From positions 54,783-74,782 of IMG/VR virus record IMGVR_UViG_3300002132_000024: DNA of 20,000 nucleotides. The stretch is one strand, 5' to 3'. The notes under the pieces were generated by a model, which saw only the letters and a program-made list of their open reading frames with translations, searched no databases and was not told the origin of the DNA. Source of the DNA: an uncultured virus (IMG/VR IMGVR_UViG_3300002132_000024). Taxonomy: Duplodnaviria > Heunggongvirae > Uroviricota > Caudoviricetes. A program made the position numbers and the translations under genes. This document shows positions 2,508 through 19,681 of the stretch, in pieces (the first letter of the stretch is position 1; each line of letters starts with the position of its first letter).

Positions 2508-2827
2508 TCTTCAAGAAGTTTAATTTTGTTAGGTACCCCATCCCACTCTGCCGCGTTAGGCAATGCATCTTTTTGTTGAGTAATAACAGGCCATTTATTG
2601 CTTAGTCTAGTATTAATATCTAACCAAAAAGCAATATCAGTATTAGCATCGTTATCGGCTACAATAGCCCCAACCGGACATTCAGGAACACATACACCGC
2701 AATCAATACACTCGTCGGGATTAATTACTAAGAAGTTAGGACCTTCGTGGAAACAGTCTACAGGACAAACACTAACACAGTCTGTATGTTTACACTTAAT
2801 ACAATTATCAGTGACTAGATATGTCAT
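2504..2827 (-). CDS. fdxA: 7Fe ferredoxin (FdxA / Azotobacter FdI type)
   Basis: [51 protein letters not shown]...WPVIT...[13 protein letters not shown] closely matches the FdI pattern. Start reassigned to the ATG at 2827 (ATGA overlap). Confidence 0.93.
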
Positions 2828-3741
2828 AGAAGTTTTGCTAACCTCACTAATGTTGCTGCTAAGTTGATTTCCGGATCTGCACAAATTGTATGATCTACAA
2901 GGCCCTGCTTGATAACAAGTATAGCTTTATCTTGATTGTCATCAGTACCGAAGATTTCGATGTTGTCATACAACCAACGATAAACTTCTTCCATTTCTTC
3001 TGCACGAATTTTACCACATAGCATTTTACGTGCTTCTGTAATTTTGCCTGCCTTAAACAGCATGACCATGTCAAACTTCCAGTCAGCTGCACCCTGATCA
3101 CCTTTGCTAGGTGCCGCAAGTACGCCTTCATTGACATTTTGTTGCACAAGGTTAATGCACTTACGGAGATCTGGATATGTCACTTTAACATAGTTGTCAA
3201 GTGTATCAAGATCAAACTCTATGTTTTCTTCAACAAGAATAGTAGCAACACGGGCAGTGAATTCATTATGATCAGTTCGTTCAACGTGGAACCCTTGACA
3301 TCGACTATGGATTGCTGGAATAATCCTGTTAGGATAGTTGCATGTAAGAATGAATCTCGAAGTTGCATGATACTCTTCCATAACTCCACGCAACGCTGCC
3401 TGTGCGTTAGGACTCAAGTAATCAGCCTCGTCAAGTAGCACAACTTTAAATGGACCAAACGGAATCATCTGTACGAAGTTTGTAATCTTATCACGGACAT
3501 CTTCAACACTGTTAGTACGTGACGCATTGATTTCTAGTAAATCAAAATCTTCAATACCTAGTTCTTGAATAAGAACTTTAGCAAGGGTAGTCTTACCGAT
3601 ACCTGCACTTCCGCTTAACAACAGATGCGGAATGCTTTGATCTTTGATCCAAGTTTCAACTTGTTTACGTTGATGTGCATCTCTAAACACATATCCGTCG
3701 ACCTTCTTAGGACGGTATTTCTCTACCCATAGTTCTTTCAT
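2824..3741 (-). CDS. Clamp loader AAA+ subunit (RFC small subunit / T4 gp44-like)
   Basis: WVEKYRP (RFC box II), [36 protein letters not shown] and DLRK motifs. Confidence 0.93.
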
Positions 3742-4376: not shown

Positions 4377-4548
4377 TTTTCTTCTTTCCTTTTGCTGCAC
4401 CCCATTTTCTTTTGTACTCTACGACTTCGCTTCGTTTGTACTTAGGGTATGTTGTCACGGTACCGCCATTTTCAAAGTATGCGCTTACCTCATTCGCTAG
4501 TTTTCCCGCAGCCTCTGCTGCTTTTTTCTTGCGTTCACTTTCAATCAA
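4360..4548 (-). CDS. Small basic protein with a SutA RNAP-binding-like motif
   Basis: KKKAAEAAGKLANEVSAYFENGGTVTTYP. Probable TTG start at 4548 overlapping the end of the TagD-like gene; the alternative GTG at 4587 cannot be excluded. Confidence 0.6.
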   Translation of the reverse strand: MIESERKKKAAEAAGKLANEVSAYFENGGTVTTYPKYKRSEVVEYKRKWGAAKGKKKNVETK

Positions 4549-4963
4549 TAGCTTGCTCTCTTCCTGCCACTCGTTTACGTAAATCACTTGAACTAAATCT
4601 ATGATCTCGTTTATTGAAGTATAGTTCGATATCTCGTTTACGGCAAATGTCTTTACCAGTAAAATCTTTATCTCTATACTCCTCTCCTAATATTCTAACA
4701 TCAATATGATACATTGTCAAGATATCTTCTAGATCTTGTTCAGTACCATACGGAATAATTTCATCTACATATCCTACTGCTTTAAGTTGTGTATAACGTT
4801 CAACAATAGTTTGTATAGGAGCATTTTTATTTGCACGATCAACGGACGGATCTACTTGTAATCCGCAGATAAGATAGTCGCACTGCTCTTTTGCTTCACG
4901 CAGCATTTGTACATGCCCGGCATGAAGTAAATCAAAAGTTGATGCAGTAAATCCTACTTTCAT
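4541..4963 (-). CDS. Cytidylyltransferase, TagD-like (glycerol-3-phosphate cytidylyltransferase family)
   Basis: TFDLLHAGH (HxGH), DYLICGL, ER, VDEIIPY, LGEEY and RFSSSDLR motifs. Confidence 0.88.
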   Translation of the reverse strand: MKVGFTASTFDLLHAGHVQMLREAKEQCDYLICGLQVDPSVDRANKNAPIQTIVERYTQLKAVGYVDEIIPYGTEQDLEDILTMYHIDVRILGEEYRDKDFTGKDICRKRDIELYFNKRDHRFSSSDLRKRVAGREQAID

Positions 4964-5325
4964 TTTACAAATGGTGATAGTTCAGGAGCAGTCCAACCTT
5001 CGGGCTTAAGAACTTTACCATCTTCACGTTTACGTACTAGTCCAGTTTCCGGATCTACTTTAGCAAAGTTAGTTTTCATTACTTCGTTCCATGCCGCTTC
5101 GGCATCGAATCCGCCTGAATGAATTGCTCCAACAGTCACAACTAGAATGTCAATTAATGCATCTAATTGTTCTACACGGTCGCTTGCAACAATAGCTTCT
5201 TTTAGTTCTTCGCGCTCTTCATCAATTAGATCCAAATACATTGCGTATTGAGCATTATTGATTTCGCTTACAGATTGACCGCAGGCAGTCATAAACTTCG
5301 CTTGATCGCGAAATGGATTTGTCAT
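4960..5325 (-). CDS. MazG-like all-alpha NTP pyrophosphohydrolase (DR2231/PRA-PH-like, possible dUTPase)
   Basis: LIDEEREEL...DALID (ExxE...D), WNEVMKTNFAK and REDGKVLKPEGW; AAGGAG SD. Confidence 0.85.
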   Translation of the reverse strand: MTNPFRDQAKFMTACGQSVSEINNAQYAMYLDLIDEEREELKEAIVASDRVEQLDALIDILVVTVGAIHSGGFDAEAAWNEVMKTNFAKVDPETGLVRKREDGKVLKPEGWTAPELSPFVK

Positions 5326-5999: not shown

Positions 6000-6227
6000 T
6001 TAACCTTTCTTGCGTGAAACAACTTCTTCTTTTGAAGCGGCTGGATTGATTGCATAAAAATCTTGCAGAACTTGTTCTCTAGTACGAGTGACTTTTCCGC
6101 CTTCGCCAATTTCGTCACCACGAGCATTAACTCTCATGTTGCCTACTGCTGGAGTTTGTTCATTACGGAGAAATAGTTTCTCCATATCGATCTCTTTTCC
6201 TCTAACACTTGTGTATGTTCTTCCCAT
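6000..6227 (-). CDS. Hypothetical protein (75 aa)
   Basis: AAGGAG SD and an upstream TAAATA box; AVGNMRVNARGDEIGEGG. Confidence 0.85.
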   Translation of the reverse strand: MGRTYTSVRGKEIDMEKLFLRNEQTPAVGNMRVNARGDEIGEGGKVTRTREQVLQDFYAINPAASKEEVVSRKKG

Positions 6228-6228
6228 T

Positions 6229-6690
6229 TTATTTCTCCTTAAAGAATTCTTCTATTGGTAAATTGTATTTAACACTGTCTACCTTGTGTACACCAATCAA
6301 GTATAACACATAACTTGCTACACTACTACCTCTGCCCACACCCCAAACTATGTTATTAGCTCTAAGGGTATCTACTACAAATTTCATTGCTAACAGCACT
6401 GGAATCATATTGTTTTTACGAAAAAGCTCTAACTCAGTAATTATCCTATTATAATTTTCTTCCGGACATACCTGGACTACTAACTCTTCGATATCCATGT
6501 TTTTATATTCGTCTGGAATAAACCAGTTGCTTGGATTGATTTTAGTTTTGGGGATTGGATAGTTTAGATGCTCGTCATGTAGTCGATTGATGTATTGACT
6601 TAAATCATCTGCAGAAACACATTCAGAAAGAATCTGAGGGCCATGTTTTATGACACCTTGTATTAGCTGCTCTGTTGTATTAGTCCACAT
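6229..6690 (-). CDS. Stand-alone fragment of DNA polymerase III alpha (DnaE; N-terminal part of the palm only)
   Basis: RIITELELFRKNNM...VVDTLRANNIVWGVGRGSSVASYVLYLIGVHKVDSVKYNLPIEEFFK aligns with the DnaE GPGRGS..GSLV.Y.L.IT..DP....L.FERF segment and ends before PD(F/I)DxD. Confidence 0.85.
   Translation of the reverse strand: MWTNTTEQLIQGVIKHGPQILSECVSADDLSQYINRLHDEHLNYPIPKTKINPSNWFIPDEYKNMDIEELVVQVCPEENYNRIITELELFRKNNMIPVLLAMKFVVDTLRANNIVWGVGRGSSVASYVLYLIGVHKVDSVKYNLPIEEFFKEK
6266..6271 (-). promoter_or_regulatory. TAAATA box inside the DnaE-fragment gene, about 40 nt before the 6227 start
   Basis: The - strand reads gtgtTAAATAca, the same tgtTAAATAca context as 454-459. Confidence 0.45.
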
Positions 6691-6910
6691 TAATCAATTG
6701 ACCCATATCACTATCTGTATCTTTCAGTCTACGAGTATGTCTTTTAGACATCTCCTCTCTGTATATTATAACAAATGTTGATAGTTGTGTCAAGAGATCT
6801 TGGTTGCCTAAACGTGCAACTGTGTGATATTTTTTGGTTAATTCTAGAAGCTTCTGCTCAACCTCTTGGTCTTTGAGATTGGACAGATCTTCTTCAAGTG
6901 GATGGAACAT
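6680..6910 (-). CDS. Hypothetical helical protein (76 aa)
   Basis: TAATG-coupled upstream; overlaps the start of the DnaE fragment. Confidence 0.8.
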   Translation of the reverse strand: MFHPLEEDLSNLKDQEVEQKLLELTKKYHTVARLGNQDLLTQLSTFVIIYREEMSKRHTRRLKDTDSDMGQLINVD

Positions 6911-7482
6911 TAGCTAAATGTACCTAGGTAGTTTATAAAGAAATTATCTTCGCTGTGGCGCCAAATTTCTAAAATAATCGGGTTAGCATCGGAAGCAACT
7001 GTTAGTGTTCCTGGATAATCTGCATTAGTTTTAACAGCAGTAGCACCACTACCGGACAATGAGAAAGATACAGTGGTTGAAGTACTACTATATAGTTCAA
7101 TTGTCATTTTGCCAACTGCTGTTCCTACCGCAGGAAATCCTAAGAAATCAAATGTAAATGCAGCAGAAGCAAATGTAAACACTTGGTAGCCGCCATTCTC
7201 AAAGTCTAGCGTGTATGTCACTTGCGCTACTTCAAATGACTGTGCAGGATTTAAGACTTCTCTGTTATTTTGTAAAGTAGCATTATGGATAAGATTGCCG
7301 TTTAGGTCGTTGTCCACATCTGTTCTTACTACGTTGTCCTGCAGGTCTTCAATCTCAGTTTTTGCTGCTGAAAAGTTTGTTTTGATTGTATCAAAATTGT
7401 CTCGGAAGACTTGTGTATCGTTGTCCTGTCCAGCTACAGGAAAGTTTTCGTTGATTGCTGCGGAATTAATGTTGCTTGTCAT
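6910..7482 (-). CDS. Putative virion/tail structural protein
   Basis: N-terminal FPVAGQDNDTQVFRDNFDTIKTNF followed by a short coiled coil and a beta-rich C-terminal domain; lies in the tail module. Confidence 0.7.
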   Translation of the reverse strand: MTSNINSAAINENFPVAGQDNDTQVFRDNFDTIKTNFSAAKTEIEDLQDNVVRTDVDNDLNGNLIHNATLQNNREVLNPAQSFEVAQVTYTLDFENGGYQVFTFASAAFTFDFLGFPAVGTAVGKMTIELYSSTSTTVSFSLSGSGATAVKTNADYPGTLTVASDANPIILEIWRHSEDNFFINYLGTFS

Positions 7483-9944
7483 GGTAATTTTTCTCTCCGT
7501 TGTGGAAACGCAAGGTATTTATCCTCTATTTCGCCGTCTATAATATCTATTATATATCTATCTGCTAAGAAGTCAAGTGATTTAAAATCAAATCCAGAGG
7601 CCTTTATCCTAGAAATAATCCCTGCAGATTTACCCGGCAAGCAGTAGCACAGGGGCAGAGCTTTGGTAAATCCTAGCTCGTATGAAGCAGAATCTTGAAT
7701 ACTACGCATCCATTGCGGCAAAAATTCACGATCTCTGTCGCCTACTGTTTCTATTTGGGTTCGCATATTCTTTATACTATTTGGGAATATTCTTTGATGA
7801 TCGCTGTCGCTTACAAACGGTATATTGCTATCTACTTTAATTGCATCATAGCTGATTAGTACCTTACTGCTTATATCATTTCTTAATTCTACAGTGCTGC
7901 TAATGCTTTTACCATTTTTTTCAAGATCGTCGATGATATTTACATATATTATTTCGTATATTACTTCTTGTGTTGTAAGATCTTTAGCTTTAGCAGATAA
8001 CACGTCTCCGAGTTTTAGACGCTTATTATAATGATTCCTGCTCATAGCCTGTACATAATTTACAGCCGCCGTGCTTTCAATTCCGGCATATACTAATACC
8101 TTAAGAGCAGTTTGTATACCGAAGTTGATGTCACCGTATCTATATAGTTCTGAATTTTTAAAGATTGTAGCATCGGTAATAAAGTTATACCATTCTAGTC
8201 TTTTACTTTTTATTTGGAAGGCTTTAAGGTATAAGTTAGCAAATGTTTTAGTCTGCTCAGACACAACAGTTATAGTAAATATTTTATTCAATACAGCAAA
8301 GTTTACACTATCTCGGGCTTTAATTGTAAACGTAAACTTTTTGTCGTATGTTGTGGTTTCACTATCGTATGTAGAAGTAAAATCTCTAGAAGCAGTAGAA
8401 CTATCTTCTGCGCTGTCAGTTCTTTCAAAAAATCTTGTAAGTCCAGGACCTGCATTGTCCGCAAACTGCTTTACTTTTCCTTGTATGCTACCAGTTGGTA
8501 GGAATTCAAGGCCTGGAGGCAATTCTCCGCTGACGAATTCATAACCTACTCTACCGCCATATAATAGAGTTTCTGCCTCAACATATAGTTTACTTGGTTG
8601 ATTAGGTTTGATAGTTCCTAGATCGCTTACGGAAATCCAACTTACAGCACTTTCGATCTCACCAACAATCTCAACTGAGAATGTTTTATCAGCAGACGAA
8701 GTACCTGCAATCCAATATGCAGTATCTGTAGGCGATACATTTCTATTGCTCACATTACAGATATAGAGTAAACCGAGATATATAACTGCATCATTTACAG
8801 CATACGCAATTGATGCATTCCAGTCGCCACGTAGAGTATATGTAGTATATGCCAGCGTTGCAGGAAAGTTCACAGCCCGCAGAGTAAATGAGTATGTTTT
8901 AGACACTCTTGCTTGATAGGGAACATTTCCTGCAACTTCCCCAGTGATGCTGTCTAACTCCATTCCTGGAGGCAATTCGCTTGCACTAGTGTCTGGATTT
9001 AATGGCAGTAGGAAATAGGTTATAGTTCCTTCTAAACTAGGAGGATCGTACACATCTAAAAATATAGTCACATAGTTGTTAGCACGGAATCTTCCTAGAT
9101 TGCTTTCAGTGATCCAAATAGGCGTTCTGCTACTTGAGGCGTCAGCTTGGAACAGATTTGTATCTACTTGTACAATACTATTGTCTGCTTGCAAAAATTC
9201 TTCAGTGACGACATAGATCTTAAAAAGTCTATTCTCGGTGTAAATTCCATCAGTCACGCCAACTACAAAGTTGTAAATTCTACTCAAACGTCTTGGAGTT
9301 CTATTAGGCTCATTGTAATCGAATGTTTCGGTATCATAGTAAAATGTATCAAAACCATTAGAGCGTGCTTCGAGATAGTCTAAAGGAATAATATCAAGCG
9401 GTGTAGTATCATACCCGCCGGAAGTGTCTGTTGAATACTCTAGCGCAAAAATAGGATCAGTGAATCCGGAAATTACTCCAGTGTTGCTTAATGACAAGCC
9501 CGGAGGAAGAAGTCCGCCGTTTGGCACTAGATAATAGATCAACAAATCTCCTGCGGTTAGATCTGTATCTGTGGCAGTCACTTGAAATTCAACATAGGCA
9601 TTATCTAGAACGAAATAGTTATCGCCAGCACCTACATTAAGGAACCCTTCTCTAGTTAGCCATAATGGTGCATCAGCGCCGTCGACTCCTAGAGTAAATG
9701 TTCTATCCTCTACATCACTACCATCACTGGCACGTATGACAAACTTGCTTTCTGTGTAAATTTTTACTTCCACGGGAGAGCCAATAATTGATCCGTTTGA
9801 TAACCGCAACCCTCTCGGAAGAGATCCTGCTAGCAAACTAAATGTTATTGCTCCGACGTTAGAAGTTGCAGACAACGGAACGTCTACTGAAATGCGTTCA
9901 GTTAGTAGTCCTAGGTCTCCGGCTGGTGTTATCCAGGTTATCAT
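7479..9944 (-). CDS. Multi-Ig (He_PIG/cadherin-like) virion protein with a CBM5/12-like insert; putative baseplate/tail component
   Basis: Four W.T/S...L...LPxG(L/M)xL...G.I/V.G repeats and a module WNASIAYAVNDAVIYLGLLYIC...AYW; AAGGAG SD. Confidence 0.75.
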   Translation of the reverse strand: MITWITPAGDLGLLTERISVDVPLSATSNVGAITFSLLAGSLPRGLRLSNGSIIGSPVEVKIYTESKFVIRASDGSDVEDRTFTLGVDGADAPLWLTREGFLNVGAGDNYFVLDNAYVEFQVTATDTDLTAGDLLIYYLVPNGGLLPPGLSLSNTGVISGFTDPIFALEYSTDTSGGYDTTPLDIIPLDYLEARSNGFDTFYYDTETFDYNEPNRTPRRLSRIYNFVVGVTDGIYTENRLFKIYVVTEEFLQADNSIVQVDTNLFQADASSSRTPIWITESNLGRFRANNYVTIFLDVYDPPSLEGTITYFLLPLNPDTSASELPPGMELDSITGEVAGNVPYQARVSKTYSFTLRAVNFPATLAYTTYTLRGDWNASIAYAVNDAVIYLGLLYICNVSNRNVSPTDTAYWIAGTSSADKTFSVEIVGEIESAVSWISVSDLGTIKPNQPSKLYVEAETLLYGGRVGYEFVSGELPPGLEFLPTGSIQGKVKQFADNAGPGLTRFFERTDSAEDSSTASRDFTSTYDSETTTYDKKFTFTIKARDSVNFAVLNKIFTITVVSEQTKTFANLYLKAFQIKSKRLEWYNFITDATIFKNSELYRYGDINFGIQTALKVLVYAGIESTAAVNYVQAMSRNHYNKRLKLGDVLSAKAKDLTTQEVIYEIIYVNIIDDLEKNGKSISSTVELRNDISSKVLISYDAIKVDSNIPFVSDSDHQRIFPNSIKNMRTQIETVGDRDREFLPQWMRSIQDSASYELGFTKALPLCYCLPGKSAGIISRIKASGFDFKSLDFLADRYIIDIIDGEIEDKYLAFPQRREKLP
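7516..7522 (-). promoter_or_regulatory. TAAATA box about 35 nt before the 7482 start
   Basis: The - strand reads gATAAATAc, the same context as 404-410, followed by a GGAG SD. Confidence 0.45.
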
Positions 9945-10796: not shown

Positions 10797-12671
10797 TTAT
10801 ACCAATGCCGCAATTCTAATCTGGAAGTCTGCAAAGTCTGTACTTGCCGCTACCACTGATTTTAATCCAGCTAGATTAATAACTCTACTGCCTTGAATTG
10901 TTATTTCGTTCTCCGCAATAATATCACTGCTAAAAAACACAGCAGGAGTAATAGTAATTGCTGAACTGTCTGAACTGTCAATTAATGTAGTAAAAATATT
11001 ACCAGTAAATGTACCACTTACTGATCCCAGTGCAGAACTATATGTCACCTCGCCTGAGGTAGAATTGTATTGTAATATAGATGTACCATCAGCACCTCTA
11101 ATTGGTTTAATTACTAAACTACTTGCTGTTGTATTTTCTACCGCAGCGCCAGTTGCGTTAAGTACAATTGAGTTTGCCGCTTGGTTAGTTTCACCTGCTT
11201 CTTTACCAATTGCTATTGAGTCTTCACCTTGATTAGTTTTACCTGCTGTATCACCAATTGCTACTGCACTTATGCCTTGCGATGTAGTTCCAGCATTAAA
11301 GCCAATTGCTACTGCAAAATTGCCTTGTGTATTACTACCTGAGGAGTTACCTACTGCTGTAGCACCATAGCCTTGAGTTGTGTTACCTGCATCATTACCA
11401 ACTGCTACTGCAAATTCACCTTGACCTGTGTAGCCTGCCGAACCACCAACTGCCACTGCACCTGCGCCTTGAGTTGTGTTACCTGCATCATTACCGATTG
11501 CTACTGCTTCTGTGCCTTGAGTTGTTTTACCTGCATCTGTTCCAACTGCTACTGCATAGACGCCTTGAGTTGTAAGACCTGCATTTTCACCAAGTGCAAT
11601 CTTTGTTTCGCTTGTTCTTAGAACAGAGGTATAAACATCACCAACAATCTTTCCATCTACTGCATCAACTAATAATGTACTGTCATCAGCAAACACACTG
11701 CCTGTTAAATCAAATACTGGATTAACAGCGAATGTTAATGTATCAGTTCCAGTGTCTTTAGTTAACGTAATGCCTGCGCCGCTGTTAATATAAAATATAT
11801 CACTAGTAGCGTCTGCAGAAATCCTGTCTCCGCTGTCTCCGTTGATTTCAAAGTTTGCAAATGAGTTCTGTGCAGGCGCACTGTTAGTAATAGTCACATC
11901 GCCTGAAGCGACATCTGTAGAAACTGTGATACCAACTCCGTTTGAAATACTAAGCACACCGGCATTGGTGATCTTAATACCGTCACCTGTTGAATTATCT
12001 ATATTGATACCTGCGCCAGCAGTGCGTCCGCTTGGCAATGCTGTGATGCTTGATAAACTTCTAACTCCAGTATTCGCTACAGAGATACTACCGGTAGCAG
12101 CACTAACTGATATACCTGCTCCAGCCGATAAACTAGTGACGCCTGTGTTGTTTACTGTGATACTTTCAGCAGCCGAATCAACTACTAATTGTACAGCAGT
12201 ACCTGAATTTAGATTCAACACCGCCGCAAAGTCAGCAGCAACAACTTGGTTGCCGTTGTCTACTTGAACAGATTTAAAAAACGTTTTGTCTGGATCGATA
12301 ATTAAACTAGTACCAATGCCAGTTAGCGGATCTCCGCCTACGGTCGAATTAGCAGGTAAGTTAACTGTAAACCCTATACCTTTAATTTGAGCATTACCCG
12401 CCCAAAGCCCGTTGAGAGGATCTACAGTGCTGTATTCACTAGAATAAATACCGCGCCACTTGTGAGTTATATCGCCGATGTCATATAAGTTGTCTGTAGT
12501 AGGTTTAACACCGGTATCTAGTGTTTCAAAGTTGACTGGAGTTAACCCCGAACCATCACCAACAGTAGCAACAAGAATGTCAAAGTTTTCATTAACTTTG
12601 ATAAATGCTTCGTGTACATCACTCCACAGTAAGGGAGGAGCCCCAGCTGTAATATTTGAATTAAATGCCAT
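10797..12671 (-). CDS. Tail fibre/adhesin with YadA-head-like repeats
   Basis: N-terminal AFIKVNENFD, GV.S(L/I)S.G.GI.VS shaft repeats and 16-aa QGxxAVAIGxxAGxTx repeats. Confidence 0.8.
   Translation of the reverse strand: MAFNSNITAGAPPLLWSDVHEAFIKVNENFDILVATVGDGSGLTPVNFETLDTGVKPTTDNLYDIGDITHKWRGIYSSEYSTVDPLNGLWAGNAQIKGIGFTVNLPANSTVGGDPLTGIGTSLIIDPDKTFFKSVQVDNGNQVVAADFAAVLNLNSGTAVQLVVDSAAESITVNNTGVTSLSAGAGISVSAATGSISVANTGVRSLSSITALPSGRTAGAGINIDNSTGDGIKITNAGVLSISNGVGITVSTDVASGDVTITNSAPAQNSFANFEINGDSGDRISADATSDIFYINSGAGITLTKDTGTDTLTFAVNPVFDLTGSVFADDSTLLVDAVDGKIVGDVYTSVLRTSETKIALGENAGLTTQGVYAVAVGTDAGKTTQGTEAVAIGNDAGNTTQGAGAVAVGGSAGYTGQGEFAVAVGNDAGNTTQGYGATAVGNSSGSNTQGNFAVAIGFNAGTTSQGISAVAIGDTAGKTNQGEDSIAIGKEAGETNQAANSIVLNATGAAVENTTASSLVIKPIRGADGTSILQYNSTSGEVTYSSALGSVSGTFTGNIFTTLIDSSDSSAITITPAVFFSSDIIAENEITIQGSRVINLAGLKSVVAASTDFADFQIRIAALV
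11160..11600 (-). repeat. Intragenic 48-bp (16-aa) tandem repeat, 8 full units plus partial flanks
   Basis: Units include QGVYAVAVGTDAGKTT, QGTEAVAIGNDAGNTT and QGAGAVAVGGSAGYTG. An exact 30-bp direct repeat occurs at 11370-11399 and 11466-11495. Confidence 0.9.
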
Positions 12672-15600
12672 TATGTTCTCCCTACTGCAATTTCAATTGT
12701 GCCAATGTGATCGCTATCGTAAGTTGTTAACGACTTACCAACCACGGTACCTACTTTGACATCTCCTGTAGCAGCCATTGCTACACCTGGAATTCCTGAT
12801 GTAATCAAGATGTCTCCTTTATTAATTTTACCAACTACTCTACATGGTACACGCCCTTGTAGCGCAACTAAGTTCTTTAAACCTGGACATGCTTCATACA
12901 TAGTGTATGCAGCAGTGTTAGATACAACTCCTGCTACTCTTGTATCGCCTTTGACGTTAGTTGTAGTGACTTCTTTATCGCCACCAAATACCAACACTAG
13001 CCCAACTTCGTATTGCTTATCGCCTTCGTAGTTCTCTGCTAAGTCAGCGGAATAAGTTGCCTGCATCCTTGACTCATTTGGACTAGTACCAGTTAGTGTC
13101 CAACGACCAGTAATCGTACCAGCTGTTGTATTACCACCAGTTGTGATAGCAGTGACTTGTACGCTTGATGCTACAATCGGAGCAGCACTAACACCGTTCT
13201 GTGTTTTAAAGTAGTGCGTATCGTTCCAGTAGTTGGTAGCTCTGTCAGCTGCCAACGAACCGTTTTGTACCAGCATGCCGCCCCCGGAGTCATATCCGTA
13301 GTATCTAATATACCCACCTGTGGCAGTAGCGGTAGTATCAATAGTTAAATTAGTGTCGATTTTGTATTGTTGCACATCAATAATTCTACCACCAAAGTCG
13401 CCATTGCTATCTCTAGCAATTAGTTCACTTGCTCCAACACTCGCGCTTGAACCTGCAGAGCTATTGATCATAGCATAGTCACCGTCCGAGCTAAAGCTAG
13501 AAGCAGACGTTCTCTTTAAGAATCCTACAGCATTAAACTGTAATTTCTTAACAGCAAGTCCTTGGTCTACCACATCACTAAATGCTACAGCACTTACATT
13601 TCCGGTGGATAGCGTTGAATTAGCTAGAACAGTTTTACTAGCAATCTGAGCAATATCTCCTAATGCCACTGAGTTTGATTTCAAACTTACCCAACCATTG
13701 GATACTGTAAAGTCAGAAGTATTAAAACTTGCCAATCCACTAGCAGCTTGTATCACTGCTGCTGATCCTGTTGGAGCTGCGGCACCAGCAGCAGCAATAA
13801 CCATATCCAACTTGCTTTGTTCAATCGCAGCACTTGCACTAACTTCTGCATTATTAACAACACCTGCATTTAACTGTACATCGATGTTGTTTACAGAAGA
13901 GTCAACGCCTGCTCTGAGATCAAGTGTTAGGTCTCCTGTGATAGTAGCATTGATCAGTGTATTACCGACTCCAGTGAAGATCATAAAGTCTCCACCTTTT
14001 GGATCAGCACCTTCCCAATCTTGGAAGTTATCTACGGTTAAACTTCGCAAGTTAACTGCATCTTGGGCAGCAACAGGATCAGTAAGATTAGTAATCTTAT
14101 TGAAGTTTAGATTCATAGTCGCTTTCATACCTAACTGTCCATCTAGTGCCATAAAGCCACCGGATACTGTTGGTATTAATTGACTTGGAGTCACTGCTGA
14201 TCCGTCATGTCCTATTCCTAATCGCCGCTCTATATAGATACGTGCAGCATTTTCTGTCGGCACTGTATCAGTAGCGTTGTCTGTAAATCCAGAGTCTGTT
14301 GAAAACTCACTTACTGGAACTCCTCGTTTAAAACCGATACCATCTAAGTTGCTCAATGCAATTGACGCAGCAAATGTCACAGTACCAGTACCTTGGTCAA
14401 CTCTAAAATATGGACCAACACTAAAATTACCAAATTGGTCAGTGGTCACATAAAAGCAACGTCCAACATCTCGTTCTTGAGTTTCCTGACTCGCGTTAAC
14501 TGCATTTACCGGTGCCCCATAAATTTCGCTAGGATAGTTAGTATCTGCATAGGATCCTGTACCAATTTCTAACAAATCATGACTTGTTACACGAGTCAAC
14601 GAAATACGAATAGTTAAACTACCAATAGCTCCGTTAGTTCTAATGGCCACCGCAGACTTAATTGTGTACGAATTTTGATAAGCAATTATACTGTCAACCA
14701 ATGGACGATTTAAAATAACTCTTGCCCATGCCTCGTTGGTTATTGCCTCATTTTGGTAAGTATCAATAACATATTCCTCTCCGAGGAACACAAATTTACT
14801 ACCTGATACTCTACTTACTTCCTGAGTCGCCACTGGAACCACAGCGAATATCGTGGAGCCAACACCACCAGTGACTGTACCTACTGTATGTGTTCCTGTC
14901 TGAGTTCCTGAAGTGACTACTGCGTCGCCGCCTGGAACTAGACTAATTCGGAATGTGTCAGTAGTTATCCCTGCACTCAGTACGTGGAAATTGTTGTTGG
15001 TAGTCACACCAGTTGGCATTACTCCAGTAGTTTCAAACTTAATAACATCGCCCGCAGTAAAGCCGTGTGCAACTAGACCAATTTCTGCAGGATCTGCTAC
15101 GGATATAGTACAGGTTCTACCAGTTGGGTAGTCGTCGGTCCATTCACCTGGTTGGTATAATGTTAAGTCGTTGTAATTATAATTCTCTCTGGTAACAGTT
15201 CTAGTTAAACCATAAAGACTATAACCAAATGTTCCACTGCCAGCAGCAGTCACAGCTACGGGATTACCGTTTTTTGTAAGCGCTACTTTAAATTCGGTCT
15301 CAGTTAGCCCATCGGTAATAACCCAATAAATTTGATTGTCATTAGTTAACGGTGCAGGAAATACGCCTGTGTAAGTTAATCCTACTGGAGTTCCTGTAGT
15401 TGTTGCTATAGCAGCACCACCGGATGACGCTGATAGGGTAAATGTTGTCGTTCCATTGGTTGCAATAATATAATAAGTAGTTGGACTTGCATATCCCGCA
15501 ATGCTACCAGTACCGACATTAATTCCACTGATGGCAATTGTTTGACCGCTGACTAAGTTTGTTGCACTGCAACTAAACTGGCCAGAAGTGCCAGTAATTA

Positions 15601-18600
15601 CTACATTGTCTAGTACAGGATCAGACAATTCTAAAGTATAGTTTTCTATCAGCTTATGAGATTTAGCAGCTTGAATATACAAACTAGACCCGTCACCTAG
15701 ACTAGGACTAGCACCGTCAACAGTTAGCGATAGATAAAATTGATTATATTCTGGAATGCTAATAACATAGTATGTGGTATCAGCAAGAAGACCGTTCGAT
15801 GAACTAGTAGGAACAACTACATCGCCTACTTTTAATTTATGATTACCGCTGGTTGTACATAGATTCGTAGCAATGTCAGTAATTGTTAGTAATATTTTAA
15901 ATACCGCCGGATCAGCAACAGTGACGCTTACATTGTATGGTGCATTTGAATCCACAGATTGGCTAAATTGAAGAACTCGATAAACGCTGTCTTCGGTTTC
16001 TCTTAGTTTTAACCCAGTAGATGGTCTAACAGCAACTTCAGCTAAATCACCAGTAAGAAATAGTTGACCGTTATTTCTAATAGTTAATACTGTATTATTC
16101 GGTACTTGTAAAAACAGTCCATCAGCAGTAGCTGCCCCACCGGCTCCGCCGAGGTTCAGTCTAGCAACACCGGCTGGCAAATCAAGTGTCGTCACATTAC
16201 TAACTGGGTATCTATAAATTACCCCGCTGTGATCAATCTCTAGTTCACTTCCACCTAATGGTGTATATTCGTATGCGTATATGTATATGAACAATCCATT
16301 TAGTGTGTTTGCATACGTGCCGGATGGGAAATAACATTTAGCCTTCTGACTAAATTCTTCATAAACTGTAGTTGGTGTTGGAACTTCTAATGGATCAGCA
16401 CCTTCTGCAACCAAGGCATATGTACCATGGGCACTTGACCCGCCTACACTTCGAATCTGTCCACCATTGATAGAATAGTATGAAATATGGCAGTAGTAGG
16501 TAAACATTGACACAGCTTCAATCAATCCGCCGTTTGTTGCTACTAGACCATATCCTAAATCGTTGATTTGTGTAAAGTCATTTGACAGCATAGAACGGTT
16601 GCCTGGCATTAACAATTCATATCTACGTTGATAGGTAAATGTACCAGTCCCGCTTGATGATGTAGCAACTTTTACAATCGAACCAAACGTTGCAGTTATG
16701 TTAAATGTGTTGTTGCTTATGCCGTCACCGACTACGTAATATTCTTGTCCAGCAATAATACCTGTAGGTAAACTGCCGCCCTCGCTTACTGCGAATACAA
16801 GAGTAGCTCCTGCTTGCATCTTATGTTCAGTAAATGTAATAACAGCAGGAGTACCGTTGCTAATAGTACATGTTTGTGCGCCAGCGGCTCTGTTATACGG
16901 TGTAGTTTCGTCTAATACAAATGTAGCAGTTGAACCGGCTGGGCTATAGACATAATCTCTAACATAGTTAATGCGGAGTACACTGTCATCAACTAAGAAA
17001 CTGGCCGGCAATTTAGGTAAACGTTCTAGTCCACTAACTGACAATCTAGTAAATGTAGCGTCCGATGAAATGTGATTAAATTGTAGGTTTCCGGTAAAGC
17101 CGTCAACAAACTTACCACCTGCAAACGTCTGGCGATTAGTGCTTCGAGAGAATGATGCGCATTCTTGAGCATACGGAGACTTGGCAAGAATTTGACCTTC
17201 GGGATCAAGCACACACATAAAGCCGCCGTGACCTTGTGCAGTAATAGCCTGCCAGCGAACCGCATCGTTGGCAAGGAAAACGTCCATGTATTGATTTTCT
17301 TTAGGATAGTTTACGCTGCCTGATCCATCGATTACATCAGTTAATGCTGCTAATAGAGCTTGAATAACTATGTCAACATCAACCTCTGCTTGATAAGCAG
17401 CATCTATAATCTGCGGAGCAAGATCGTTGTATATAGTTGATATTACAGTATTATCTATGATGTCTATCATTAAATTTTCTAGATGAACTAATACTGCAAG
17501 GTACTCGTTCAGCTGATCTGTAATAGCAATTCTAGCACTAGCGCTTTCATAATACTTTAATCCTGCAGAGATAGTTCTATTATATCCACCGTACTTTAGG
17601 TCAAAAGTAAATGCATCAACTAGTAATCCTACATCTCTCTTACATAAAGCGCTGGTATAACTAAATGCAGGTGTAAATGGAGAAATAGTATTTGCTATTT
17701 GATAATCCATCCATGCAATGATTTCTTCTTGCAAGAATGCTCTGTTTAAATTGATTAACTCTGCAGCAGCGGTATACGTACCCTTGTTATCGACTTTTGG
17801 ATAAACCGGTTCGGAAGAGTCTTGTAGATAGTGATAACCGTATATTTTATCAGCAACAGCTAATCCGTCAACGACAGTGTCTCTACGAAATTTTTGGAAC
17901 GCCCACGGGGAACTTGATGTTCCTGGCTTTGGTCTAATAATACATCTACGAAATTCATCACCAACAATAGATACGTTTTGCGGAACTTTTAGTGGATAGT
18001 TTTCATAGTACTCACCACTTTCAACCAAAACAGAAATTTGTGTACTTAAGGTAATATCGCCGTAGGCTATTATTTCACCTTCAACAAATGAACCAAACTT
18101 AACGTCAACATCAAAAATCTCTCTGCCTTCAGAATCAAGTGAACCGTCGTGTGCTAAAATTTGTGCAAGTGCTCCAGAAGTAACACCTTCTAGATATAAT
18201 CCTTCACGGATGTCTCTGCCTCGAATAGCCTGCGGAGTATCAGTAGAGACATCACCTGTGAAATCTGTTCGGTATCCTTGGGTATCAAGTAAGAATCTTG
18301 GCAGATCGACAGTTAACGTTGGTAAGCTAGTAAATCCAGTACCTCTATCGGTAATAGTAATACTAGTAATCACACCGCCGGTGACTACCGCAGTACCAAA
18401 TGCACCTGCGCCACCGCCGCCAGTGATACGAACTGATACTAGCGAATATCCAGTTCCGCCGTTTGTGATGGTTACAGAGTTGACTCTATAGGTAATATTA
18501 AATGTAGCACCTGCGCCAATAGCGCCGATACCTACAGGAGCAGCTGATTCGTCGATTACAGTGGATACAGAAGTAGCACCTGGCAAGACTGAGTATGTAC

Positions 18601-19681
18601 CTGTAGAAATAATTCTATAAGTTAATATAGCCCCAGGAGTAGTTAGTGTTGACAGCACCTCAATGGTACACGCTCCGGTTCCGGTTCCGCCAACTATGCT
18701 TAAAATATCCCCAGGAAAGTAGTTTGTACCAACGGAGTTGAGCACTACAGCATTAACACTTAATTTTACATCGCCTGCAAATCCACTTCCAGAACTCGGA
18801 GAACTTGTAATGCTACTTAATGTGACATCAGAAGCTCCTTGGTTATAAGTTAATACCTTTCTATAAGGTCCAATTCGCAATGGTGATTCTAAAATTATTT
18901 CTTCGGCACGTTTTAACGCTGCTTCTAATGTACGATAGGCATAGGCCAATGCACGACCTTGCAACGATCTCGACACGCCCACTCTTTCGTCTGCCCCAGA
19001 TGTTGCAACGTATAAGTTTACAGAACTGCCAAATGCAGCGTTGTCAACGTATCGTTTTGTTGCAGCAACTAAGCCATCGAAGTTAACATCATCGTCTGGC
19101 TCTGGATCTCTAGAAAGTATCAACGGACCAGACATGCGACCAAACGCTGAATCTGCACTTCCGGTTTCTGGATTAATAGCATTCACACCTGCTCTTGATA
19201 TTTTACTATCAGCATATGCTTTATTAACTAATTCATGTTTGTATAAAGGTGATAGGGGTGTTAATTGAGTTCCTGCATCTAGGATTCTATATTGTAGGCC
19301 ACCAGAGCGTAGAGATAAGTCGCCACCTAACTGTGGGGATGTATCTGCAGAAATTTCAGCAAAGTCTGCATTAATCGAAATCTCATTTGGATTAGTAATA
19401 AAGTCAATACTAATACCATTTCCAGAAACTAGTTGTTTAAATGCTACCCCCGATTCAGTGTTATTAACTGTGACCAACGGTGTAGAACCTGTAGTTGGAT
19501 CGTTCTGTCCAACATACGAACCTGGAGTATCGTCTAGACCGATGAACGAAAGTCGTTCACCTAGTCCTAACGAACTGTATAGTTCTCGAAAGTTATCATT
19601 AACTTTTCTGAACGAGTCGCGAATACTATCGCCTGTACCATCATTACCTACGGTACCAATATCAATTGTTTTACGTGCCAT
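12671..19681 (-). CDS. Giant modular tail fibre/tailspike (2336 aa)
   Basis: gp10-like N-terminus (TIDIGTVGNDGTGDSIRDSFRKVNDNFRELY), SPQLGGDL and AATKRYVD fibre motifs, pectin-lyase-like segments (LYVATSGAD...AYRTLEAAL; SGEYYENYPLKVPQNVSIVGD), repeated beta modules, and a C-terminal ADLAE...VALQGRVP domain resembling the peptidase G2 intramolecular chaperone. Confidence 0.85.
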   Translation of the reverse strand: MARKTIDIGTVGNDGTGDSIRDSFRKVNDNFRELYSSLGLGERLSFIGLDDTPGSYVGQNDPTTGSTPLVTVNNTESGVAFKQLVSGNGISIDFITNPNEISINADFAEISADTSPQLGGDLSLRSGGLQYRILDAGTQLTPLSPLYKHELVNKAYADSKISRAGVNAINPETGSADSAFGRMSGPLILSRDPEPDDDVNFDGLVAATKRYVDNAAFGSSVNLYVATSGADERVGVSRSLQGRALAYAYRTLEAALKRAEEIILESPLRIGPYRKVLTYNQGASDVTLSSITSSPSSGSGFAGDVKLSVNAVVLNSVGTNYFPGDILSIVGGTGTGACTIEVLSTLTTPGAILTYRIISTGTYSVLPGATSVSTVIDESAAPVGIGAIGAGATFNITYRVNSVTITNGGTGYSLVSVRITGGGGAGAFGTAVVTGGVITSITITDRGTGFTSLPTLTVDLPRFLLDTQGYRTDFTGDVSTDTPQAIRGRDIREGLYLEGVTSGALAQILAHDGSLDSEGREIFDVDVKFGSFVEGEIIAYGDITLSTQISVLVESGEYYENYPLKVPQNVSIVGDEFRRCIIRPKPGTSSSPWAFQKFRRDTVVDGLAVADKIYGYHYLQDSSEPVYPKVDNKGTYTAAAELINLNRAFLQEEIIAWMDYQIANTISPFTPAFSYTSALCKRDVGLLVDAFTFDLKYGGYNRTISAGLKYYESASARIAITDQLNEYLAVLVHLENLMIDIIDNTVISTIYNDLAPQIIDAAYQAEVDVDIVIQALLAALTDVIDGSGSVNYPKENQYMDVFLANDAVRWQAITAQGHGGFMCVLDPEGQILAKSPYAQECASFSRSTNRQTFAGGKFVDGFTGNLQFNHISSDATFTRLSVSGLERLPKLPASFLVDDSVLRINYVRDYVYSPAGSTATFVLDETTPYNRAAGAQTCTISNGTPAVITFTEHKMQAGATLVFAVSEGGSLPTGIIAGQEYYVVGDGISNNTFNITATFGSIVKVATSSSGTGTFTYQRRYELLMPGNRSMLSNDFTQINDLGYGLVATNGGLIEAVSMFTYYCHISYYSINGGQIRSVGGSSAHGTYALVAEGADPLEVPTPTTVYEEFSQKAKCYFPSGTYANTLNGLFIYIYAYEYTPLGGSELEIDHSGVIYRYPVSNVTTLDLPAGVARLNLGGAGGAATADGLFLQVPNNTVLTIRNNGQLFLTGDLAEVAVRPSTGLKLRETEDSVYRVLQFSQSVDSNAPYNVSVTVADPAVFKILLTITDIATNLCTTSGNHKLKVGDVVVPTSSSNGLLADTTYYVISIPEYNQFYLSLTVDGASPSLGDGSSLYIQAAKSHKLIENYTLELSDPVLDNVVITGTSGQFSCSATNLVSGQTIAISGINVGTGSIAGYASPTTYYIIATNGTTTFTLSASSGGAAIATTTGTPVGLTYTGVFPAPLTNDNQIYWVITDGLTETEFKVALTKNGNPVAVTAAGSGTFGYSLYGLTRTVTRENYNYNDLTLYQPGEWTDDYPTGRTCTISVADPAEIGLVAHGFTAGDVIKFETTGVMPTGVTTNNNFHVLSAGITTDTFRISLVPGGDAVVTSGTQTGTHTVGTVTGGVGSTIFAVVPVATQEVSRVSGSKFVFLGEEYVIDTYQNEAITNEAWARVILNRPLVDSIIAYQNSYTIKSAVAIRTNGAIGSLTIRISLTRVTSHDLLEIGTGSYADTNYPSEIYGAPVNAVNASQETQERDVGRCFYVTTDQFGNFSVGPYFRVDQGTGTVTFAASIALSNLDGIGFKRGVPVSEFSTDSGFTDNATDTVPTENAARIYIERRLGIGHDGSAVTPSQLIPTVSGGFMALDGQLGMKATMNLNFNKITNLTDPVAAQDAVNLRSLTVDNFQDWEGADPKGGDFMIFTGVGNTLINATITGDLTLDLRAGVDSSVNNIDVQLNAGVVNNAEVSASAAIEQSKLDMVIAAAGAAAPTGSAAVIQAASGLASFNTSDFTVSNGWVSLKSNSVALGDIAQIASKTVLANSTLSTGNVSAVAFSDVVDQGLAVKKLQFNAVGFLKRTSASSFSSDGDYAMINSSAGSSASVGASELIARDSNGDFGGRIIDVQQYKIDTNLTIDTTATATGGYIRYYGYDSGGGMLVQNGSLAADRATNYWNDTHYFKTQNGVSAAPIVASSVQVTAITTGGNTTAGTITGRWTLTGTSPNESRMQATYSADLAENYEGDKQYEVGLVLVFGGDKEVTTTNVKGDTRVAGVVSNTAAYTMYEACPGLKNLVALQGRVPCRVVGKINKGDILITSGIPGVAMAATGDVKVGTVVGKSLTTYDSDHIGTIEIAVGRT

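Follow-up and report, generated by a model that had tools for sequence, protein, structure and literature searches.

A candidate N-terminal, nucleotide-binding subunit of a split minimal DNA polymerase III alpha in an uncultured T4-related jumbo phage

Introduction

The bacterial C-family polymerases DnaE and PolC are single chains of 900–1200 amino acids (aa) that contain PHP, palm, thumb, finger, clamp-binding and OB parts. In DnaE, as in other nucleotidyltransferases of the Pol-beta fold, a glycine/serine loop with the motif GRGS holds the triphosphate of the incoming nucleotide. In cyanobacteria, DnaE is encoded as two pieces, DnaE-n and DnaE-c, which are rejoined covalently into the full-length replicase by a trans-splicing split intein. 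Here, we analyzed a small open reading frame (ORF), hereafter the N-half, on a 20,000-nucleotide (nt) stretch of DNA (the window) from an uncultured virus of the Caudoviricetes (IMG/VR record IMGVR_UViG_3300002132_000024, positions 54,783 to 74,782). The N-half is, in our judgment, likely to be the N-terminal nucleotide-binding subunit of a split minimal DNA polymerase III (Pol III) alpha of T4-related (group 2.2) jumbo phages.

A split minimal Pol III alpha in group 2.2 jumbo phages was predicted from sequence by Iyer, Anantharaman, Krishnan, Burroughs and Aravind (Iyer et al. 2021, Viruses 13:63, PMC7824862). The locus described here resembles their system in that a small stand-alone palm part binds the nucleoside triphosphate (NTP), with a C-terminal Mg2+/template-binding unit (hereafter the C-half) on a distant gene in relatives, and in that T4-related jumbo phages carry it in addition to a family B polymerase and lack the remaining Pol III domains. 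The window copy is of the same kind as the members of Iyer et al. and differs from them in belonging to an environmental clade, in being shorter (153 aa) and in its N-terminal extension. The system is therefore not a new discovery, having been published as a prediction in 2021, and the novelty implied by a preliminary description of the ORF, made from the sequence alone, did not hold. Earlier genome papers noted a truncated “Pol III alpha” (CBB_328, 172 aa; Atu_ph07 gp316) and not its partner. In some database records (Sinorhizobium phage Phosso; RefSeq “DNA polymerase”), the two halves have already been named. Our search of the literature from 2021 on for a split Pol III beside a family B polymerase in jumbo phages returned only Iyer et al. 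2021. A search for split or mini-DnaE without that date limit returned, among the matches listed, only the intein-split cyanobacterial enzyme. No bench test of a split minimal Pol III alpha was found in the non-subscription literature searched.

Results

The N-half Matches the First Part of the DnaE Palm

The preliminary description had reported an ORF of 153 aa, tightly coupled to its neighbors, that carries the GRGS motif and ends at IEEFFKEK, and all of these features were confirmed from the ORF list and the sequence. The N-half overlaps the upstream 76-aa ORF by 11 nt, and a single base separates its stop codon from the downstream 75-aa ORF (Table 1). A Pfam scan found one family, PF07733 DNA_pol3_alpha (E 2.7e-13), with residues 67–152 aligned to positions 11–96 of the 260-position profile, so that the protein matches only the first third of DNA_pol3_alpha. 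The scan detected no PHP, intein/Hint or any further family at E ≤ 0.1, in agreement with the earlier statement that a PHP domain and an intein N-half are absent from the fragment; the other domains of a full-length DnaE were likewise without a Pfam match in the N-half, the PHP family not having been searched genome-wide. In the PHROGs database, the protein matched phrog_11127, a 171-position profile named “DNA polymerase”, with an E value of 3.5e-38.

At the sequence level, residues 79–150 of the N-half were aligned with residues 383–454 of Thermus aquaticus (Taq) Pol III alpha and residues 322–392 of the Escherichia coli enzyme, the alignment ending on ..FERFL. The C-terminus of the N-half, ..PIEEFFKEK, falls 3–4 residues short of the position of the DnaE catalytic aspartates, and the aspartate triad, which in a full-length DnaE belongs to one chain together with the GRGS loop, is absent from it. 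The N-half shares the palm fold and the GRGS loop with full-length DnaE and PolC; unlike these, it has only 153 aa, and in relatives the aspartates are found on another gene product.

The Missing Aspartates Are Encoded by a Separate Gene in Relatives

No finger domain above the cut-off was detected on this contig or in three complete relatives, the cultured phages Atu_ph07, MIJ3 and 121Q. Two sub-threshold finger matches corresponded to ORFs of 191 aa in Atu_ph07 (MKNIPDIDIDF...) and 212 aa in 121Q (...RTDIDIDF...); in 121Q, the N-half is gp56 and the 212-aa ORF occupies positions 13,282–13,917. A search with the 121Q C-half detected a single homologue in each of the three complete genomes, at distances of 31, 43 and 182 kb from the N-half, and each genome contained exactly one PF07733 match. 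In two environmental relatives, G003 and G005, the N-half shares 69% and 54% identity with that of the window, and an ORF of 192/193 aa starting with MPDIDIDF lies 167–168 kb away from it.

The co-occurrence of the two genes was also seen from the other side. When the C-half was used as the starting point, four of five long IMG/VR contigs also carried the N-half, and the two with a completeness rating of 100% (G008 and G009) were among these four. Alishewanella phage Slicko01 (complete, 141 kb) encodes both halves about 11 kb apart. Altogether, both halves were present in all six genomes taken as complete (121Q, MIJ3, Atu_ph07, Slicko01, G008 and G009), 11–207 kb apart, and on four large partial contigs (G003, G005, G011 and G012); the distance in the environmental relatives G003, G005, G008 and G009 was 167–207 kb. 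In tblastn searches of cultured phages, the numbers of matches to the N-half and the C-half were nearly equal for each genus: 34 and 34 for Escherichia, 11 and 11 for Pseudomonas, 10 and 11 for Klebsiella, and 8 and 8 for both Salmonella and Erwinia.

The C-halves, which have sizes of about 192–212 aa, belong to phrog_11778 (E 9.1e-70). At least 7969 matching proteins were found (7969 of 8000 candidates), an abundance like that of the N-half. Twelve residues were invariant in an alignment of 33 C-halves (D3, D5, D7, F8, K66, D68, R135, P136, K138, K165, H168 and Y172), and they make up the motifs DxDxDF, K-x-D, R-P-x-K and K-x-x-H..Y. These motifs are colinear with those of Mycobacterium tuberculosis DnaE1, in which MPDIDIDF, ..IRPAKR.. 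(with ..YRPGP..) and ..FKKSHA.AY.. (with ..FNKSHAAGY..) find their counterparts. These data demonstrate that two separate, conserved and co-occurring proteins jointly correspond to the trimmed palm and fingers of a C-family polymerase, with the NTP loop on one of them and the metal-binding and finger residues on the other.

The preliminary description had called the ORF part of a candidate intein-free split C-family polymerase. This was supported by the lack of an intein family in the N-half and by the C-halves of G003 and G005, which begin directly with MPDIDIDF. Since, in addition, the N-half ends 3–4 residues before the aspartate strand, the junction has no space for an intein, and intein-mediated splicing is not possible. 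The arrangement is like the cyanobacterial split DnaE in placing a C-family polymerase on two distant genes and unlike it in having no intein. The partner that had also been proposed, with a start near (M)PDIDID at another place in the genome, was indeed found in G003, G005, Atu_ph07, 121Q and MIJ3, and was not seen on the fragment of this phage. The number of pieces was limited to two, as the three complete relatives had no further PF07733 match and no finger-domain match above the cut-off.

Predicted Structures of the Two Halves Abut on DnaE

Models of both halves were built with AlphaFold2 from family alignments and compared with the Protein Data Bank (PDB) by Foldseek, and VIA-align was used for a second look at the matched ranges. 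The reference structures were those of E. coli Pol III alpha (2hnh, 2hqa and 5fkv), Taq (2hpi, 3e0d and 4iqj), M. tuberculosis DnaE1 (5lew and 7pu7) and PolC (3f2b). The mean predicted local distance difference test score was 85.2 for the N-half and 90.0 for the G003 C-half. For either model, all of the top 17 matches returned by Foldseek were C-family polymerases, the best E value being 0.036 for the N-half, which is weak, and 3.1e-4 for the C-half (template modeling score 0.60). The match of the C-half to solved DnaE by sequence is marginal, and the assignment of the two halves rests on VIA-align together with the PHROG and Pfam matches.

Residues 52–153 of the N-half were superimposed on residues 275–395/396 of E. 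coli Pol III alpha (Z 8.8–9.7, root mean square deviation (rmsd) 2.9–3.0 Å, 97–100 residues aligned), and residues 51–153 on residues 303–415 of M. tuberculosis DnaE1 (Z 11.1, rmsd 2.4, 97 aligned); the matched ranges in Taq and PolC were 292/294–457 and 820–967. Residues 1–190 of the C-half were superimposed on residues 400/401–781/784 of the E. coli enzyme (Z 8.6, rmsd 4.1, 185 aligned), and the ranges in M. tuberculosis DnaE1, Taq and PolC were 419–811, 461–841 and 971–1296. The ranges of the two halves therefore abut in all four enzymes with a gap of 3–4 residues, which indicates a clean cut just before the aspartate strand. Only 185–188 residues of the C-half were aligned over about 385 residues of DnaE, which means that it has lost the thumb and a large part of the fingers.

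Residues 52–153 of the N-half thus represent the first part of the DnaE palm, and residues 1–51 form a clade-specific helical extension of three short helices, which matched no solved structure and differed between clades. Neither helix nor strand was assigned to residues 112–126 in the model, a feature that would fit a strand in need of a partner chain.

The Breakpoint Is Conserved and the Gene Is under Purifying Selection

The distribution of the N-half was examined by a word-indexed search of metagenomic proteins of similar length and by an exhaustive search of representatives of clusters at 50% identity. In the former, at least 8000 proteins matched at E ≤ 0.001 (all 8000 candidates that were scored), and the best 120 of these were 153–158 aa long with 66–100% identity. 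In the latter, 1280 representatives matched at E ≤ 0.001, of which 783 reached E ≤ 1e-10; all of the best 150 among the 1280 had lengths of 59–196 aa. In each of 50 aligned homologues, the C-terminus is at most a few residues away from the shared ..EF[FL]K, and among these 50 sequences G117, G119, R120, G121, S122 and S123 are invariant and V118 is nearly so.

The ratio of nonsynonymous to synonymous substitution rates (dN/dS) was calculated by the Nei–Gojobori method (NG86) for 56 distinct genes from the window and its IMG/VR relatives. The median was 0.26 and the maximum 0.60 over the 215 of 1540 pairs with 0.05 < dS < 1.5, while 742 of the 1540 pairs were saturated. The N-half gene is under purifying selection. 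Both checks suggested in the preliminary description, conservation of the breakpoint and dN/dS, thus came out in favor of an intact gene, the same length and end being shared by thousands of independent contigs.

A search among longer proteins (217 candidates) yielded seven, each a singleton or a two-member cluster on one contig. Unrelated Pfam domains were found in four of them; two others are extended at the N-terminus and keep the same C-terminal breakpoint, and one (P0397) is an N-half that reads through into the downstream phrog_14844 gene. A fusion of the N-half with the C-half was not found among these seven, which is weak evidence given the search from which it comes.

A Promoter-Like Site Precedes the N-half

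A sigma-70-type promoter-like site lies upstream of the N-half (Table 1), its −10 hexamer ending about 75 nt before the ATG at 6690, within the upstream 76-aa ORF. Sites with at least 10 of 12 consensus positions were present within 200 nt upstream of the N-half in all 26 distinct IMG/VR relatives, 23 of them at 11/12, and the best site in control stretches reached only 8–9/12. The same scoring detected no enrichment of sigma-70-type sites upstream of the C-half. This match to the consensus suggests that the N-half is transcribed early by the host polymerase, probably from a strong promoter of this type. In the published PA5oct data searched, no per-gene expression values were found for the pair EST35_0288 and EST35_0220 of that phage.

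The Genome Also Encodes a Family B Polymerase

The window forms the 20-kb end of an IMG/VR record that is linear, 74.8 kb long and 21% complete according to CheckV. A protein identical to the N-half is also encoded on a 352-kb contig; none of the best 120 C-half clusters includes a contig of this length. Among the genes of the record is one for a family B DNA polymerase of 889 aa, which matches both the polymerase and the exonuclease families (PF00136, E 8.5e-36; PF03104, E 1.2e-20), and the DnaE-like piece is therefore not the main replicase of the phage, contrary to what had been proposed from the sequence. Family B polymerase matches were also found in all three cultured relatives tested (Atu_ph07, MIJ3 and 121Q). 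In Atu_ph07 and MIJ3, these matches were split over two open frames, of 418 and 578 aa in the former and 825 and 379 aa in the latter, and the main polymerase of these two phages thus seems to be encoded in pieces as well; the contig of the window has a single 889-aa ORF.

Genes around the Two Halves

The features of the window and of the compared loci are listed in Table 1. Genes for GroES-like, MazG-like and cytidylyltransferase-like proteins sit between the N-half and the clamp loader, and the neighborhood is of the T4-related phage type. The tblastn search of cultured phages with the N-half matched small ORFs of 169–177 aa in jumbo phages, MIJ3 among them (E 4e-22 to 2e-27 for Atu_ph07, PA5oct, GAP32, 121Q and PBECO4); these phages (Atu_ph07, the Rak2-like 121Q, GAP32 and PBECO4, and PA5oct) belong to the group of Iyer et al. 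or are its relatives. The gene order N-half, phrog_14844 protein, GroES-like protein and clamp loader was common to the window, Atu_ph07, MIJ3 and 121Q.

The genes adjacent to the N-half are not polymerase pieces, in line with what had been noted before: the downstream one belongs to phrog_14844, whose function is unassigned, and the upstream one has no clear family. The gene directly 3′ of the N-half is phrog_14844 also in 121Q, MIJ3 and Atu_ph07 (E 7.3e-64, 4.3e-11 and 8e-08). The protein is 75 aa long in the window and 113–134 aa in these three phages, always directly behind the N-half; it is a conserved neighbor and a possible third component of the system. Upstream on the same strand are three large ORFs of 821, 624 and 2336 aa, which are presumably structural.

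Behind the C-half, G003, 121Q, Atu_ph07 and PA5oct have a gene in convergent orientation for a protein of about 120 aa with the conserved sequence ..WWW[EQ][ST]NR.IP... This gene belongs to phrog_11637 in 121Q, Atu_ph07 and PA5oct (E 1e-57 to 9e-35), and the G003 copy was recognized by eye. The 3′ ends of the two genes overlap in G003, 121Q and PA5oct and are about 13 nt apart in Atu_ph07. Upstream of the C-half in G003 and MIJ3, a protein of 223–235 aa carries an N-terminal C..C...H..C zinc-finger-like motif, the similarity between the two having been recognized by eye.

Table 1. Positions of the features in the window and in loci of related phages (L numbers).
Feature	Position	Strand	Basis or remark
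gp44-type clamp loader	2824..3741		Pfam/PHROGs
Cytidylyltransferase-like protein	4541..4963	(-)	phrog_7878, heptose-phosphate adenylyltransferase type
MazG-like pyrophosphohydrolase	4960..5325	(-)	
GroES/gp31-like protein, 140 aa	5575..5997	(-)	PF00166 E 1.2e-5; phrog_931
75-aa ORF, translationally coupled downstream of the N-half	6000..6227	(-)	phrog_14844 E 8.3e-15
N-half ORF, 153 aa, ATG start	6229..6690	(-)	ORF list; probable N-terminal NTP-binding unit of split minimal Pol III alpha
GVGRGSS motif, residues 117–123	6322..6342	(-)	Read from sequence; 50-homologue alignment; aligns with Taq GPGRGSAAGS
Upstream 76-aa ORF	6680..6910		
Sigma-70-type promoter-like site, TTGACA-17 nt-TATAAT, TG before the -10 hexamer	6765..6793	(-)	12/12 consensus positions
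821-aa ORF	7479..9944	(-)	
624-aa ORF	10797..12671	(-)	
2336-aa ORF	12671..19681	(-)	
phrog_14844 gene in 121Q	L003:4415-4759		
phrog_14844 gene in MIJ3	L002:4316-4657		
phrog_14844 gene in Atu_ph07	L001:4502-4906		
Split family B polymerase match in Atu_ph07	212,336-213,688		
Split family B polymerase match in MIJ3	124,889-128,666		
Convergent ~120-aa gene	L102:2073-2444	(-)	
Convergent ~120-aa gene	L009:1742-2095	(-)	
Convergent ~120-aa gene	L008:996-1361	(+)	
Convergent ~120-aa gene	L201:2069-2467	(-)	
Protein with zinc-finger-like motif in G003	L102:600-1271	(+)	
Protein with zinc-finger-like motif in MIJ3	L019:789-1496	(+)	

Discussion

Our data are best accounted for by a C-family polymerase core that is divided between two genes. 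We infer that, with no splicing step, the two chains would associate into one fold in which the N-half strand preceding GRGS pairs with the aspartate strand that opens the C-half. One active site of the Pol-beta type would then be built from two polypeptides, as the abutting structural ranges suggest, with the N-half holding the triphosphate of the incoming deoxynucleotide and the C-half supplying the metal-binding aspartates and the finger residues. Such a two-chain enzyme of about 345 aa may have an auxiliary role as a nucleotidyl transferase. Most likely it would be a DNA polymerase that acts in repair or takes over part of replication, working beside the family B replicase as a second polymerase.

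Several observations weigh against this interpretation. The C-half resembles solved DnaE only weakly in sequence (E 0.01), and the 28 of 33 members that match the Pfam finger family do so below the cut-off (best E 0.0029). A C-half was found neither on the 74.8-kb record of this phage nor on two contigs (97 and 67 kb) with a 100% identical N-half, and 14 of 16 N-half contigs of 80–210 kb are without one. Its absence from fragments would be expected if the halves are as far apart here as in G003, G005, G008 and G009 (167–207 kb); the 14 contigs fit that separation without proving it, and the partner gene of this phage presumably lies outside the 75-kb fragment. The most pointed case is G004, a 202-kb contig that is flagged as having direct terminal repeats and as 100% complete, and that carries a full T4-type core gene set and an intact N-half. 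An unfiltered profile search of G004 found no C-half (best E 0.6), nor were any of the neighbors of the C-half in G003 found there. The completeness of G004 is doubtful, because its 127-nt terminal word recurs internally at 196,620, among repeated genes of the RCC1 type, with RCC1-repeat paralogues at both contig ends. The circular, complete call may thus be a repeat artifact, and this internal third copy weakens the case for G004 as a complete genome with the N-half only. The N-half of G004 is about 98 kb from either contig end, less than the usual distance to the C-half.

These same contigs bear on the possibility that the N-half acts alone or with another partner, as an adaptor of the T4-type replisome or, the alternative raised in the preliminary description, as a modulator of host Pol III, and that the C-half is dispensable. 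G004 and 13 other contigs (80–168 kb) with an intact N-half and no C-half would be in line with this, as would the fixed neighborhood of phrog_14844, GroES/gp31-like and gp44 clamp-loader genes that the N-half keeps in four distant phages while the C-half is located elsewhere, the separate helical extension at residues 1–51, which has no DnaE counterpart, and the conserved promoter-like site found at the N-half and not at the C-half. We nevertheless consider such a role unlikely, since both halves occur in every one of the six genomes taken as complete, the sole “complete” exception, G004, depends on a terminal repeat that is also internal, and the other single-half contigs are shorter than the 167–207 kb that separate the halves in four environmental relatives. 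Moreover, the invariant residues form the NTP-binding GxGRGSS loop, which a mere adaptor would not need, and residues 112–126 of the model would suit a strand that requires a partner. By far the least probable explanation is decay of a once full-length DnaE, of which the ORF would be a remnant, or a frameshift or misassembly that has cut a longer gene; the N-half is indeed short and lacks the catalytic aspartates, and one of the seven longer proteins (P0397) runs on into the downstream gene. Decay, assembly error and frameshift were rejected on the basis of the length and end shared across thousands of contigs and the dN/dS of 0.26. The downstream frame, moreover, encodes an unrelated conserved protein (phrog_14844), and none of the longer proteins joins the two halves, the two extended ones stopping at the usual breakpoint.

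It is also quite improbable, in our view, that the two chains assemble into some other nucleotidyl transferase of the Pol-beta fold, for untemplated addition, a nucleotide signal or a modified nucleotide. The loss of the thumb and much of the fingers (185–188 residues aligned over about 385) would be compatible with such an enzyme, and so would the lack of any PHP, beta-clamp-binding or OB part in either half, where the Pfam matches were limited to PF07733 for the N-half and to a finger match below threshold for the C-half, and the presence of a full family B polymerase in the phage. Against this, the finger motifs of the DnaE template/dNTP site are kept and are colinear with M. tuberculosis DnaE1, the nearest structures of both halves are all replicative C-family polymerases, and Iyer et al. 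2021 read the system as a polymerase.

Within the two-chain polymerase that we favor, the split itself might be a timing device and not a mere relic, a speculative proposal to which we give little credence. The N-half travels with the clamp-loader and co-chaperonin genes and has a conserved promoter-like site of its own, and the C-half, 11–207 kb away, lies in another cluster by the phrog_11637 gene and has no such site. On this proposal, an active site, with a palm sheet completed across the two chains, would form only once both gene clusters are expressed. The phage would then possess a switchable second polymerase beside its family B replicase, and in lineages such as G004 the N-half might also have a role that needs no partner.

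The appropriate annotation of the ORF is N-terminal unit of a split minimal Pol III alpha, rather than “DNA polymerase III alpha subunit” or replicase, and the family to which it belongs is highly abundant in metagenomes. An active pair would represent the smallest C-family polymerase core by a wide margin, with about 345 aa in two chains compared with more than 900 aa, and its catalytic center would be built across two polypeptides without splicing. It would then offer a minimal model for the working and the origin of the bacterial replicase, a point made by Iyer et al. 2021.

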